Source of the DNA: a virus
Lineage: Duplodnaviria > Caudoviricetes
Virus record (IMG/VR): IMGVR_UViG_3300010344_001170
Location: 1 to 64,000 of that record
Length of the DNA stretch: 64,000 nt
Strand: one strand, 5' to 3'
Part shown: positions 45,894 to 61,720 of the stretch, in pieces
Layout of the letters: each line of letters opens with the position of its first letter
Numbering within the stretch: the stretch's first letter is position 1
Made by a program: the position numbers and the translations under genes
The notes under the pieces: model-generated
What the model was told of the DNA's origin: nothing
Seen by the model: only the letters and a program-made list of their open reading frames with translations
Database searches by the model: none

Positions 45894-46166
45894 ATGTTAC
45901 TAGTTGCAGAAATTATTTTAACTATCTTCGCCTGGAAAAAAGGCTGGAGATGGTGGGCTTTAGTACCTGTTGCACTCGCATTATTAATTGGTCTCTTTAT
46001 GGGAATGGGTGTTGGCGCATCCGGTGGTGATGTTGACAGTGTCAGAGGTATATCCATTGTTCTCGACGTAATTGCAGTCATAGCTCTTATAGTTATGGTT
46101 ACAAAAGGGCCGAAAACTAACGAAGTAGAAGAAACTAAAGATATTGAGAATGCTCCTCGGAGCTAG
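45894..46166 (+). CDS. small multi-TM membrane protein
   Basis: Three hydrophobic segments. Confidence 0.75.
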   Translation: MLLVAEIILTIFAWKKGWRWWALVPVALALLIGLFMGMGVGASGGDVDSVRGISIVLDVIAVIALIVMVTKGPKTNEVEETKDIENAPRS

Positions 46167-46498
46167 TTATAGAGTAGGTATGTAAGACGCGGGTTCGAAT
46201 CCCGCCACCTCCACAGCGAAACAAGTCGCTAAACGAGTTCCAATTTACTCATTCTTAAATTGGTGGTGGAATCCTGACCATCGTCCAGTTTCTGGACACC
46301 GGTTAGCCCTGGGTTTTCGGAATTGAACCCTTAATCAATTCCAAACGGGGGTGACTTGGCTTTGATTGCATACTGAGGGAAATAATGAACGTCTCAATGA
46401 ACGCAATAAACGGCGAACAGTTTAATGAAATGAAAATGGCTGCTTAAGAAGCACCCACTTTCAGGAGACTTGCCGGCAGCCTTAGTGCCGGCTTTTTT
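46167..46498 (+). ncRNA. ssrA: circularly permuted (two-piece) tmRNA; tag (A)GEQFNEMKMAA
   Basis: T-arm GCGGG-TTCGAAT-CCCGC + CACCTCC-A (46189-46213) precedes GGGGGTG (46347-46353), giving a G3:U70 acceptor stem; TTGCATAC pairs with GTATGTAA; tag frame 46412-46447. Piece ends approximate. Confidence 0.88.
46465..46498 (+). terminator. intrinsic terminator, repeat copy 1
   Basis: GCCGGCA-7nt-TGCCGGC + T6. Confidence 0.8.
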
Positions 46499-46501
46499 AT
46501 T

Positions 46502-47002
46502 ATGAAAAAATTTAATTATTTTTATAAAACTACAAACATCATAAATGAAAAATTTTATTATGGTGTTCATTCTTCTGACAAAGATAACGATAATTATCTA
46601 GGATCAGGAAAATTATTATTAAAGGCTATCAAAAAATATGGCCGTGAAAATTTTAAAAGAGAAATCATCCAATTTTTTGATTCTTTTGACGATGCCTTAA
46701 ATTTTGAAAAACAATTTGTTATCGAAGATATAATAACAAATCCATTATGTTATAATATTAACATTGGAGGTAAAGGAGGGTCAAAAAGAGGAAGACAATC
46801 TCCAATGAAAGGACGAATACATTCTGAAGAAACAAAAACAAAAATTAGTAACTCTGAAAAGGGAAAGTCTAAAAATAAAGGAATAACTCGCTCAATAGAA
46901 ACCCGGCAAAAAATTAGCGAGAATAATGGTATGAAAAACCGAGGTTATCTTGTTTCTGGTTCTCGTAATGGAATGTATAAGAAAAAATACAATATAATTT
47001 AG
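46502..47002 (+). mobile_element. free-standing GIY-YIG homing endonuclease
   Basis: YFYKTTNIINEKFYYG, YLGSG, CYNINIGG, NUMOD3 HSEETKTKIS. Confidence 0.88.
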
Positions 47003-51776: not shown

Positions 51777-52571
51777 TTGAGCCAATTAACTATAAACAAT
51801 TTTAACCCAAAGAAAATAAAGTGGTTAAAGGATTATTATGGAAACCCGGCGGCCTATTATCCGCTCAAAGTACCAGGAGTCACAACTGTTTTAGGTGATA
51901 TGATTGTTGATCCTGAGTATTTAAAGTTTATTGAAGAAGTAGGAGAAGAAAAAGCAAAGCAAATAACGGAAGCCGCTTGGCATCGTGGAACAGCGATGCA
52001 TTCATTCATTGAAAATTTTGTAAAAGAATTAGCGAAGAGTAAAGATCCCTCTATGGCTCTTCAACACACTCAACAGGTTTCACCAATGTTGTTGGAACAG
52101 GAAGGTGTGCCGATGGAGAAAATAGATAAAGGACGAGAATTATTTTTGAATTTCTATTATTCGGACTATGCCAACTCATATACTGATCTTATAGGAACCG
52201 AACTCGTCCTTTATTCTCCATCTTTATTTTATCGTGGCAAAACAGATGTTTTCTTCAATGAAAATGGTATTGGCCGCGTAATCACCGATTTTAAAACTAC
52301 TAGTAAATTTATTGTCAAAGGATCTGTTAAAGAACAGATTTATAAACATCAGCTTGGCGCTTATGCCATTGCTGCTGAAGAAATGTTTGCTGAAAAACAA
52401 GTTAAAATTGCAAAGGCATCTATTTTAGCAGTTCATACAAAATCCACATTAATACAAGAAATTGTATGTCAAGGAGATGAACTTGAAGAGCATAAAGAAG
52501 CATTTAAAACTATTGTTAAAGCTTGGCATATAAAAAATAACCAAGGTTTTTTATTTGATGAGAGGGCTTGA
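51777..52571 (+). CDS. PD-(D/E)XK exonuclease
   Basis: PGVTTVL, RGTAMH, E..L, RGKTD, DFKT, QLGAYA. Confidence 0.88.
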   Translation: MSQLTINNFNPKKIKWLKDYYGNPAAYYPLKVPGVTTVLGDMIVDPEYLKFIEEVGEEKAKQITEAAWHRGTAMHSFIENFVKELAKSKDPSMALQHTQQVSPMLLEQEGVPMEKIDKGRELFLNFYYSDYANSYTDLIGTELVLYSPSLFYRGKTDVFFNENGIGRVITDFKTTSKFIVKGSVKEQIYKHQLGAYAIAAEEMFAEKQVKIAKASILAVHTKSTLIQEIVCQGDELEEHKEAFKTIVKAWHIKNNQGFLFDERA

Positions 52572-54235: not shown

Positions 54236-55131
54236 AATTAGGAAATTTAAAAATTACGAATAAAGGACTTTATTGGGGGTTAATCATAACCTTTGCCTTT
54301 TTGTATTTGTTTGTAGGATTTGTATCGACCTTACATTCAATTACATTCTTTAATTTGGCAAACACAATGAGTCTTGCAATACTTCTTGGTATAACATATG
54401 AAATTGGCCAAGCATCAGTATTGTTTTCGATATTAATGACCAAAAACAAAGATAAATTTCTTCCTTGGGCTTTAATGTTTCTATTAACGGCATTGCAGGT
54501 TACGGCAAACGTTTACGCTTCGTTTAAATATATGGCCACATCTGGAAGCAATGATTGGATGTATTGGCAGAAATCTATTCTTATAGGGGTGCAGGCTGAG
54601 AATGCGGAAATGTATCAAGTAATTATATCTTGGATTGCAGGCGCGTTACTTCCTATTGTTGCTCTTGGTATGACAGCTTTAGTGGCACAAAATATTAAAT
54701 TGATGACTGAGGATTCTCCTGTACAGTCTACAGAAACAGGAGAAATAAATTCAGAAAGAATGGAAGCCATTATCGAAAATGAAGTTGAAAAAAGAATCAG
54801 AGAAAGAGATCAATTAGATGAAGAAGCTGCATCATTATCTCCTCCTGTTGAAGATTTAAAACAACAATATGATAAATACGATAAAGCAAATGATATTCCT
54901 GTTAAACTCGAAACACAATCAGGTGTGATACAAGAGCCTATTTCAATTCCTCTTCAAAAAGAACCAGAACCAGAACCGGAACCAGAAGTTGTTCAAGTTA
55001 TTAAGCCAGTCAATAAAGTTCAAGGATGGCATTTCCTAAAAGAATTTGTGGATGACGATCATAATGTTTTTCAGAAGGGAAAATTTATAGGAAACGATCC
55101 AACTAAAATTCCAACCTCAAAAAAAGCATAG
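54232..55131 (+). CDS. four-TM membrane protein with acidic P/E-rich tail (short form)
   Basis: Four hydrophobic helices, EPEPEPEP repeat. Confidence 0.85.
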   Translation: MKLGNLKITNKGLYWGLIITFAFLYLFVGFVSTLHSITFFNLANTMSLAILLGITYEIGQASVLFSILMTKNKDKFLPWALMFLLTALQVTANVYASFKYMATSGSNDWMYWQKSILIGVQAENAEMYQVIISWIAGALLPIVALGMTALVAQNIKLMTEDSPVQSTETGEINSERMEAIIENEVEKRIRERDQLDEEAASLSPPVEDLKQQYDKYDKANDIPVKLETQSGVIQEPISIPLQKEPEPEPEPEVVQVIKPVNKVQGWHFLKEFVDDDHNVFQKGKFIGNDPTKIPTSKKA

Positions 55132-55448
55132 GGACCGGCAAAGATGAGGGGAAACATCCGGTCCCTGAAGATACAACCCCAGAAAAAGTTCTTGAAGAAA
55201 TACGAAAACCTAGTAAAGGTGAAGAATTAATTAAGAGGCTTCAGGAAAGTAAGACTTCTTCAGATGTAAGTATCAATGAACCAACAGAAGAAATCGCCCT
55301 AGCATCCTCCCAAGAGCCTGGGAGTGATAAGAAAACTGACTTTGCAAGTGTTGTTTTAGATGGAGTAGAAGTAGTTGATGTAAAAGCTATTCCAAAGGAT
55401 GGCATACCTGAAAGAGGACCAAGAAAAACATGGGATAAACCTATTTAA
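55119..55448 (+). other. -1 programmed frameshift signal and 107-codon extension
   Basis: A_AAA_AAA at 55119-55125; stem AGGGACCGG/CCGGTCCCT 55130-55166; -1 frame open to TAA 55446-55448. Confidence 0.75.
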
Positions 55449-55449
55449 T

Positions 55450-55671
55450 ATGATAACTAAAATTCAAAAATTCGGAAAAGAACTTGCTGTGCAAGAACAA
55501 CTAGTTGGTAAACATCGTGATCATTGTTTATGCTGGCAAAAATGTAAATATTTCAAACCAAACGAAGAAGATAATTGTCCTATAGCACAGGATTTATTTG
55601 AGTTTGATAAGAAATTTGGAGTAACTACCCCAGTATGGGAATGTGAAACCTACGAACCACTGCCAGAATAA
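55450..55671 (+). CDS. small Cys-containing protein
   Basis: CLCWQKC..NCPIA..WEC; ATG 2 nt after the -1 frame stop. Confidence 0.75.
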   Translation: MITKIQKFGKELAVQEQLVGKHRDHCLCWQKCKYFKPNEEDNCPIAQDLFEFDKKFGVTTPVWECETYEPLPE

Positions 55672-59821: not shown

Positions 59822-61720
59822 GTGGTTTTTAATTTAAAAAGAGGCCTGAGTCTCTTTTTCTTTTTATGTTGGACGATCTTATTGAAAGCGGAAATCTATT
59901 ACGTTTCTCCAACAGGAAACGACAAAAATCCAGGAACATACAGCAATCCATGGAAGACCATAGCTTATGCCTCATCCCAAGCAACTTCAGGAGATGTAAT
60001 TAATTTAAAACCAGGTACTTTTCTAGAACTTTTTCCAAGCTTAATAAAGCCTAATGTCAACCTTGAGGGGGTAGGCCCTGGATCTATTATTAAATCTAAT
60101 GTAGAAAATGGCCCCACAATCATTCTTATGTCCCAGGAGGGAGCATATGGTAATCAGTATATTGCCAATTTGACTATTGACGGAGATAATCTAAAGGGAT
60201 ATGGGGGAATTCTTGTAAGTGGAAGAAGTAATGTGAGCATTCATCATTGCAATTTTAAAAATTTAAGAAATTATGCTGCAGTATTTAATGCAAGTACTGA
60301 TACTGCAAACTACGAACCTAGATTTTTCTTTGGAATTGATACAGCTACTCACTTAGAGCCAACAGTTTATGCAAATGGAAATAAATTCTTTCAAAACACC
60401 ATTGAAAACTGCGCTATTTTTTATCCAGCAAAAAGAGCATTAGGTGCTTTAATGATTGGGGGTCAAAATGAAATAAACATTTTTGATAATAATATTAGTC
60501 AGGATCAAAGAGAAGTTGGAAATAATGGTTATCCAATAAAACATTATAGAGGTGGATATAATAAGAATCCAAAAATATTCAGAAATACTTTAATAAAAAC
60601 CCCAACAATTTTATCAAGAGATGAATTCTTTTTAGGTTGTGCTATTGAACTTTGGCATACGATCGGTGGTGAAATTTATGAAAACAAATTAAGAGGCGGA
60701 ATGTTTTTTGTTTTTCTTAAGGACATAAAAATTCATCATAATACAATTGGATATGACTCATTAACAGTTGTTCCTAAAACTGGAATTTACGTTTCTGGAG
60801 ATGTGAATAATGTTACTATAAACAACAATTATTTCGAAAATTTAGCATTACAAATAGCATTTAGTCCTTTTGCAGCTACCAAATTAGATAGTGTTTTCAT
60901 ACACACTAATGTCATGTTTAATATTGGTGTTTCCACAGATGAATGGTGGGGATGCGGTATTAGTTTTGCAGGATTAACTTCAGATACAGTTTCTAATCTT
61001 CATGTTGTTGGCAACACAATGATTGCAAATCCCGGAAGTAGAAATACAAGAATCGGGCTTTATTTACCAACTACAGGTTACGCAACGAATATCAATATTC
61101 GAAATAATATAATGTCAGGATTTAGATATGCAACTATTTTTGCTGCAGGTCCTGATCGTACTTTAGATTTGCTTTCTATACAAAACAATATTTTGTGGGA
61201 CAACACATCAGATACAACTAAAACTTACTGTACAAGTGATTCAGCATATTTTACAAATATAAAACCCCCTCTTAGATATGTTGACGAAAATAATTTTTAT
61301 CAAGATCCTATGTTTATTGATGATCAATTTCATTTGTCATCAAGTTCTCCTGCTCTTAATAATGGAATTTATATTCCATGGATAGATAAGGATTTTGAAG
61401 ATAATTTAATTATGAATCCTCCTGATATTGGGGCTCTTGCCTTCAATATTCTGATCATTGATGAGCCAGTTATTGCCGATGAAAATGGCTTATTAATTTA
61501 TCCAGTTCCCGTAACAAATTATTTTACATTAGTTATCAAAGATCCCATGTTTCAACAGGCGAATATGGAGATATACGATTTTGCAGGAAAATTAATTTAT
61601 CGTGAAAAAATAATTGAAAATATTACTCATTTTTCACAAATAAATTGGAAGGCCGGCTTATATATATTAAAAGTACAAACGAGTAGGGAACTATTGGTAT
61701 CTAAAATTATAGTTCTCTGA
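59822..61720 (+). CDS. secreted right-handed beta-helix protein with T9SS type A C-terminal sorting domain
   Basis: Signal peptide; YYVSPTGND.N.GT...PWKTI..A (DUF1565-like); parallel beta-helix; CTD IYPVP..IYDFAGK..GLYILKV..KII. Confidence 0.85.
   Translation: MVFNLKRGLSLFFFLCWTILLKAEIYYVSPTGNDKNPGTYSNPWKTIAYASSQATSGDVINLKPGTFLELFPSLIKPNVNLEGVGPGSIIKSNVENGPTIILMSQEGAYGNQYIANLTIDGDNLKGYGGILVSGRSNVSIHHCNFKNLRNYAAVFNASTDTANYEPRFFFGIDTATHLEPTVYANGNKFFQNTIENCAIFYPAKRALGALMIGGQNEINIFDNNISQDQREVGNNGYPIKHYRGGYNKNPKIFRNTLIKTPTILSRDEFFLGCAIELWHTIGGEIYENKLRGGMFFVFLKDIKIHHNTIGYDSLTVVPKTGIYVSGDVNNVTINNNYFENLALQIAFSPFAATKLDSVFIHTNVMFNIGVSTDEWWGCGISFAGLTSDTVSNLHVVGNTMIANPGSRNTRIGLYLPTTGYATNINIRNNIMSGFRYATIFAAGPDRTLDLLSIQNNILWDNTSDTTKTYCTSDSAYFTNIKPPLRYVDENNFYQDPMFIDDQFHLSSSSPALNNGIYIPWIDKDFEDNLIMNPPDIGALAFNILIIDEPVIADENGLLIYPVPVTNYFTLVIKDPMFQQANMEIYDFAGKLIYREKIIENITHFSQINWKAGLYILKVQTSRELLVSKIIVL

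Follow-up and report, generated by a model that had tools for sequence, protein, structure and literature searches.

The window, that is, the whole 64-kb stretch of phage DNA analysed here, contains a gene for a 299-aa protein of which the 3' end reads ...ACC TCA AAA AAA GCA TAG, together with an open -1 frame that runs on past this stop codon (Table 1). The AF2 model of the 299-aa protein has four long membrane helices (residues 10-42, 45-69, 76-103 and 125-160) in addition to a short N-terminal helix. The helices are followed by a helical linker rich in acidic residues and proline, and then by a small β-hairpin module with the motif GWH..EFVD..HNVF.KGKF, which is predicted with a pLDDT of ~90. 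Neither the 299-aa ORF nor the extension encoded in the -1 frame has a match in Pfam or PHROGs. In the ESM Atlas, the matches are exclusively phage clusters that lack a Pfam family, one of which is automatically named "transmembrane protein family". A Foldseek comparison of the AF2 model against the PDB returned nothing at E ≤ 0.001, and PDB sequence profiles gave no solved relative of the protein. The gene was not found among isolated phages by blastn, and tblastn against annotated collections yielded a single match in an uncultured 462-kb phage (32% identity), which covers the membrane domain only and comes without the cassette described below.

Table 1. Positions of the genes, signals and putative structures discussed in the text (window numbering, except where a locus handle is given)
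Feature	Position	Strand	Remarks
PD-(D/E)XK-type exonuclease gene	51777-52571	+	phrog_298, E = 3.6e-22
Zero-frame ORF, 299 aa	54232-55131	+	ends ..TSKKA, then TAG; from window sequence and ORF list
Heptamer A_AAA_AAA	55119-55125	+	TC[A AAA AAA] GCA; X_XXY_YYZ phase, G next
Zero-frame stop TAG	55129-55131	+	one codon past the heptamer, at the base of the stem
-1 frame extension, 107 codons	55125-55448	+	SIGTGK...TWDKPI, then TAA (55446-55448); open frame, conserved motifs
Candidate stimulatory hairpin	55129-55167	+	arms 55129/30-55138 and 55158-55166/67, loop 55139-55157
Loop GGGG, candidate 5' strand of pseudoknot stem 2	55148-55151	+	complement lies downstream
CCCC, candidate 3' strand of pseudoknot stem 2	55177-55180	+	complement of the loop
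Next gene, 73 aa, Cys-rich	55450-55671	+	ATG 2 nt past the end of the -1 extension
Cassettes of class B relatives	L035:3466-3526, L027:2181-2238, L019:2333-2390 and nine more		heptamer and hairpin at the homologous place
Second slippery site, A9	L019:2669, L027:2526, L028:3652, L033:3685, L062:4096 and others		

The exonuclease gene, located 1.7 kb upstream, is the sole identifiable gene nearby, and the four small genes between it and the membrane-protein gene belong to no family in Pfam or PHROGs. Gene callers that are blind to frameshifts leave a 318-nt gap after the TAG or fill it with spurious calls. Public gene calls place in this gap either an antisense ORF of 54 aa (55241-55405, -) or a 90-aa version of the next gene that begins at the ATG at 55399 (55399-55671, +); given that the -1 extension ends at 55448, the 73-aa form of the next gene fits better than the 90-aa form. 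Elsewhere in the window, ARAGORN called a tmRNA gene (46124-46538, +; starred in the gene column) with the tag peptide GEQFNEMKMAA. A 632-aa β-helix protein (59822-61717, +) carries a C-terminal T9SS sorting domain (Por_Secre_tail, 40.6 bits, cutoff 27), and because of this domain on a neighbouring gene the phage host probably belongs to the Bacteroidota. Contigs related to the window come from uncultivated large phages and reach up to 260-405 kb. In one close relative (L012), an extra ORF of 132 aa (1092-1490) with weak cytochrome c matches in Pfam lies directly upstream of the membrane-protein gene.

The original prediction had read the locus as a -1 programmed ribosomal frameshift that gives two isoforms of a membrane protein, with an in-frame A_AAA_AAA two codons before the TAG. 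The window sequence from 55119 to 55131 agrees with this placement, and the coordinates and numbers of the prediction were all correct when rechecked against the sequence. With a GC content of 31.6%, the 64-kb window holds 33 A-runs and 17 T-runs of at least seven nucleotides, making 50 on the two strands. As A7 runs are so common on their own, the weight of the argument has to rest on the combination of features and on its conservation. The combined motif A7-G-NN-TAGG occurs once in the window, compared to 0.07 occurrences expected. TAG is the rarest stop codon in the window and terminates 6 of the 52 long ORFs. Reassignment or readthrough of TAG was rejected on the grounds that these six ORFs end with it and that the zero frame closes again 32 codons past the TAG.

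The 9-bp GC-rich stem proposed in the original prediction (55130-55138/55158-55166) was recovered on the sequence as well as by folding. A U55129-G55167 wobble pair extends it to 10 bp, enclosing a loop of 19 nt, and the hairpin begins 3-4 nt past the heptamer. The 45-nt hairpin segment folds at -17.4 kcal/mol with a z of -3.1 against shuffles, compared to a z of only -1.4 for an 82-nt segment at the hairpin. The stem is encoded by the codons GGG, CCG and GTC, which are locally rare (GGG makes up 6.8% of the Gly codons and CCG 6.6% of the Pro codons). No T-run follows the hairpin and neither a terminator nor a promoter was called there, so that these two readings of the hairpin were rejected. 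Rfam gave no match to a frameshift element, the one match being a chance hit to a lncRNA (E = 0.23).

A further proposal, that the loop pairs with a downstream run to form an H-type pseudoknot, fared less well: GGGG and CCCC lie where they had been placed, whereas their pairing is weakly supported. Most relatives also have a G-rich loop motif with a downstream complement (GGGG:CCCC, GAGGA:TCCTC, GGAGT:ACTCC and AAGAGG:CCTCTT), and the summed complementarity score of 250 exceeds 184 ± 8 for shuffled sequences, compared to 210 for a real upstream control. The distance to the partner ranges from 7 to 33 nt among relatives, and the partner does not align across subgroups because the C-runs lie at different positions. 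The GGGG:CCCC pseudoknot is therefore best regarded as suggestive only.

The -1 frame of the window is open from 55119 to the TAA; its opening lies just four codons before the A-run, and ATG, GTG and TTG are all absent from it. It had been described as a start-less frame of 107 codons that stops 2 nt before the next ATG, and this description holds (TAA at 55446-55448, ATG at 55450). A shift at the heptamer would join 298 residues to 107 at the junction of ..IPTSKK with SIGTGK.., giving a predicted product of 405 aa beside that of 299 aa, as in the original prediction. In relatives, the -1 ORF has 92-141 codons at every locus and opens 4-18 codons before the A7; the GVEV motif is present in it in all of 26 loci. 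Seven of 20 loci lack ATG, GTG and TTG in this ORF altogether, and no start position is conserved. The conserved blocks of the product are KKS[ILV]G, PSKGEELI, DGVEVVDVKAIPK and GIP..RKTWDKI. Between close relatives, substitutions in the -1 frame fall mostly on third positions (e.g. 4/8/28), a pattern indicating that the frame is evolving as coding sequence under purifying selection. Moreover, the -1 product of the window matches the C-terminal end of relatives that encode the protein in a single ORF (class B, see below), with blastp E-values down to 5e-7; judged by these matches, the tail encoded in the -1 frame is homologous to the C-terminal module of the single-ORF proteins. AF2 models the extension as a flexible tail (pTM 0.22) that includes a hairpin and two short helices, and the positive-inside rule would place this C-terminal tail in the cytoplasm.

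The family comprises at least 349 metagenomic or viral proteins, none of which is annotated. We examined 121 proteins, namely 120 listed family hits and the -1 product of the window itself. Seventy-four of the 121 form class A, in which the protein ends in KK[AV] right at the stop codon, after the conserved GWH..EFVD..HNVF.KGKF motif. Another 34 of the 121 form class B, which lacks the GWH motif and continues in a single ORF through to the ..GVEVIDAKAIPK.. module. The GWH and GVEV motifs occur together in one ORF in none of the 121 proteins. Likewise, the fused form that an A8 run would produce is absent among the 121 and also from an extension-seeded search for longer proteins, the latter being weak evidence.

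A scan of viral contigs yielded 49 loci, to which metagenome contigs were added. The arrangement N-A7-G-NN-TAG was found in 26 viral and metagenomic loci, 20 of them non-redundant, down to ~46% protein identity, and all 26 have a contiguous stem of 6-11 bp that starts 3-5 nt past the A7. The hairpins of representative relatives, taken alone, fold with z from -3.0 to -5.7. The A7 run, the G that follows it and the phase do not vary at all among 38 aligned cassettes (36 distinct rows). The codon before AAA AAA varies between TCA, CCA and TTA in these cassettes, and since the heptamer stays invariant while this codon changes, the A at its synonymous third position is itself conserved. TAG is the stop in all 26 loci, which were gathered by the A7-G-NN-TAG pattern and thus have TAG as part of the pattern; it is kept as the stop there on account of its place at the base of the stem. 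In two class A variants the TAG is gone, with AAG instead in L042 (3718) and CAG in L051 (3688), yet heptamer, stem and -1 module persist in both. Past the lost TAG of L042, the zero frame runs on for ~60 more codons and is rich in lysine and serine.

The arms of the stem differ from lineage to lineage with their pairing preserved, as in GGGACCGG/CCGGUCCC, GGAGCGAGC/GCUCGCUCC, GGAACUUCUAU/AUAGAAGUUCC and GGAACGAGU/ACUCGUUCC, and the pairing is also preserved where the residues encoded by the stem change (GTG..PVP, GAS..ELAP, GTS..EVP). In the MAFFT alignment A2, 83.9% of the cells are paired, compared to 32-45% when the partner is slid; double changes affect 6 of the 9 pairs, and compensatory cells number 34, compared to 10 in shuffles (0/500). 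The model-fitted alignment A3, with 36 distinct rows, has 83.1% of its cells paired and 76 compensatory cells. The closest relatives (80-86% identity) retain the stem without covariation, the compensatory changes being contributed by more distant members. Taken as a whole, this pattern of substitutions indicates that the stem is under selection as RNA. Conservation of heptamer and stem in homologues had been named beforehand as a check, and both are indeed kept in the 26 loci (20 non-redundant), with compensatory changes in the stem.

Class B carries a similar cassette at the homologous place, where ..PKK is followed by EQELL..: an A7 run in phase and followed by G, a 5-nt spacer and an 11-bp hairpin. 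This hairpin is 91.7% paired, compared to 30-45% when slid, shows double changes in five pairs and folds with a z of -3.6. Here it is the zero frame that encodes the long module, with a basic tail of 18-38 aa in the -1 frame; compared to class A, the frame changes inside the hairpin region. As the module is in frame and both the heptamer and the covarying hairpin are kept, a shift in class B would truncate the protein. The cassette may accordingly work with either polarity: it would extend the protein in class A and, in the manner of dnaX, truncate it in class B. When a membrane-domain tree was computed to count such flips of polarity, 26 of its 35 branches were left open. Where class A has the GWH module, the class B loci L019-L040 have a conserved KK[RKP]GRPPK motif, some 45 nt before the A7; the AT-hook look of this KKRGRPPK motif offers a lead towards DNA binding.

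In addition, in 11 distinct loci the last motif, FGIP..NFDRI, can be reached from the GVEV motif only by another -1 shift, at a second slippery site. This second site is exactly A9, in the phase NNA AAA AAA AAY, in all 11, and no conserved stop position and no downstream structure were found at it in these loci. The near-identical P0029 and P0033 differ at the second site, having A10 and A11, respectively, and slippage of the polymerase is a plausible mechanism for the A9 site. Three loci (L030, L051 and L052) contain both the A7 cassette and the A9 site, so that a single gene could yield three or four variants of the C-terminus; the window lacks the second site. We tentatively propose, at somewhat less than even confidence, that the cassette is an ancestral and movable isoform switch of a membrane-protein family of huge phages, which is used in either polarity and acts in combination with a second slippery site.

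Altogether, the locus has the canonical features of -1 programmed ribosomal frameshifting: a heptamer in phase, a covarying 3' structure and a conserved overlapping -1 ORF without a start codon. The frameshift reading of the original prediction gains support from the conservation of the cassette, the covariation of the stem, the coding character of the -1 frame and the homology of the tail. We are accordingly confident, short of certainty, that a -1 frameshift cassette sits at the 3' end of this gene for a phage inner-membrane protein, and as A7 and hairpin are kept together in dozens of related phages, a share of the ribosomes very probably slips back by one base. On decoding ...TCA AAA AAA, a ribosome would hold tRNA-Lys on the AAA at 55120-22 in the P site and on the AAA at 55123-25 in the A site, while the hairpin 3-4 nt downstream would resist unwinding. 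In a fraction of the ribosomes, both tRNAs would then move back by one base and pair anew with 55119-24. These ribosomes would go on to read AGC AUA GGG..., adding 107 residues up to the TAA at 55446-48 to give the 405-aa form. Ribosomes that do not slip would read GCA and terminate at the TAG in the base of the stem, giving the 299-aa form. Membrane anchor, linker and GWH module would be common to both isoforms, and the long one alone would bear the tail with PSKGEELI, DGVEVVDVKAIPK and GIP..WDK.

The spacer of 3-5 nt is at the short end of the usual range for bacterial stem-loop stimulators. According to a review, A_AAA_AAA shifts much less readily than A_AAA_AAG in E. coli (PMC5009743). The host here is probably a member of the Bacteroidota. 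Together, the A_AAA_AAA heptamer and the short spacer weigh against a high efficiency of frameshifting.

From the arrangement of the cassette we infer that the slippage occurs on the ribosome. An RNA polymerase that adds an extra A at the A7 run would produce some mRNAs encoding the same 405-aa protein, leaving the hairpin to serve some other purpose. The product would be identical to that of ribosomal frameshifting, and low-level slippage of the polymerase is possible at a run of this length. The second tract of the family, exactly A9 without a downstream structure, fits such slippage, as does the A10 versus A11 difference between near-identical relatives. However, efficient bacterial sites of transcriptional slippage usually have at least nine residues (PMC5009743), whereas the first run is exactly seven and never longer in the 38 aligned cassettes. 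Its phase is invariant, and a covarying hairpin follows at the spacing of ribosomal frameshifting; such a hairpin would be of no help to a slipping polymerase, because a polymerase at the A7 has yet to transcribe it. The A7 site thus departs from the description of a transcriptional-slippage site (a run of at least nine, free of phase and structure) to which the A9 site of the relatives conforms, and we consider polymerase slippage at the A7 improbable. Far less probable still, to the point of being negligible, is that A7 stands for A8 through a sequencing or assembly error, or that a real frameshift mutation left a truncated gene and a decaying remnant. Homopolymers are indeed error-prone, an A8 would fuse the frames, and distant relatives do carry the module in one ORF. 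By identity of the protein, the 299-aa form occurs in 21 blocks of the collection according to its index. The homopolymer check of A7 against A8 suggested with the original prediction came out the same way throughout: from A7 and TAG through to the hairpin, there is no difference among the 10 contigs compared, which represent 10 samples and the separate assembly pipelines of JGI, ENA and Logan, and no indel fuses the frames in them. With the layout kept in 20 non-redundant lineages to ~46% identity, purifying selection in the -1 frame and no fused GWH+GVEV protein found, error and pseudogene are refuted as far as sequence data can refute them.

Two other accounts take the hairpin rather than the heptamer as the functional element. 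The downstream ORF might be translated as a separate polypeptide, by termination-reinitiation or from a non-canonical start near the TAG, with the hairpin tethering the terminating ribosome. The stop codon does lie inside the base of the conserved hairpin, and the -1 codon overlapping it is AUA, UUA or GUA, codons that some systems use as near-cognate starts. No start is conserved there, however, even when near-cognate codons are included (AUA, UUA, GUA, ACA), and reinitiation would leave the invariant heptamer and its phase without a reason. L042 and L051 retain heptamer and stem despite the loss of TAG, and single-ORF relatives have the module covalently joined to the membrane protein; we regard reinitiation as very unlikely. 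The hairpin might instead act in mRNA stability, processing or regulation of the downstream gene, the A7 being incidental to a Lys-Lys pair. That A7 runs are frequent in an AT-rich genome and that Lys-Lys is conserved at the protein level would suit this account, to which we give equally little credence. It would leave unexplained why an open, conserved and start-less -1 ORF of ~100 codons begins exactly there and why, in 38 of 38 cassettes, the codon before AAA AAA has an invariant A at its synonymous third position, and the hairpin is not followed by a terminator-like T-run.

With ribosomal frameshifting as the preferred reading, the ratio of anchored proteins with the C-terminal tail to those without it appears to be under selection in the family, which provides a handle on an uncharacterised protein. 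The covariance model R1 can flag the site in other genomes; at this locus, present gene calling yields a gap of ~320 nt or spurious ORFs. The cassette also represents a natural signal of A_AAA_AAA plus hairpin that is presumably active on ribosomes of Bacteroidota, in which frameshifting has hardly been studied. A literature search of limited reach found no description of this gene family.

Among known systems, the cassette resembles that of E. coli dnaX, which produces τ and γ: both have an in-phase Lys-Lys heptamer and a simple stem-loop a few nucleotides downstream, and the isoforms have their N-terminal part in common. Class B is similar to dnaX also in that the shift leads to early termination, whereas the shift in the window extends the protein. 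The two differ further in the heptamer, which is A_AAA_AAG in dnaX and A_AAA_AAA followed by G in the window, and in the spacer, which is 6 nt in dnaX compared to 3-5 nt in the cassettes here. In addition, dnaX has an upstream SD-like element, while no GGAGG-like element is present in the 25 nt upstream of the heptamer in the window. The membrane protein itself is unrelated to the dnaX product, having no match in Pfam or PHROGs.

The tail chaperone G/GT of phage lambda is encoded by an overlapping ORF pair between the tail tube and tape measure genes, and is a soluble chaperone. Similar to the present locus, it is a case of -1 frameshifting in a phage, in which a fraction of the product acquires a C-terminal extension from a start-less frame with a short overlap. 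By contrast, the gene described here encodes a four-helix membrane protein near an exonuclease gene, has a different slippery sequence and matches no tail family in PHROGs or Pfam. Most G/GT frameshift sites are not known to have an obvious stimulator, whereas the hairpin found here is strongly conserved. The transposase frameshifts of the IS1 and IS3 families (A_AAA_AAC, A_AAA_AAG) also combine an A-rich heptamer, a nearby zero-frame stop and a downstream stem-loop or pseudoknot to make a fusion protein, whereas the present locus has no transposase or IS features in Pfam or PHROGs and no frameshift-element match in Rfam.

E. coli copA is comparable as a case of recoding in a membrane-protein gene that yields two isoforms with different domain content. 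In copA, which encodes a P-type ATPase, the -1 shift truncates the protein early and releases the short soluble CopA(Z); in the present gene, by contrast, the shift site lies at the 3' end and the membrane anchor would be part of both isoforms. The frameshift mechanism proposed here is canonical and of the textbook kind. To our knowledge, nearly all well-supported -1 frameshift cassettes of phages belong to genes for tail chaperones, capsids or clamp loaders. Set against these systems, the cassette is unusual in the class of its gene, a membrane protein of uncultivated large phages, as well as in its clean covariation, its possible flip of polarity and the second slippery site of its relatives.
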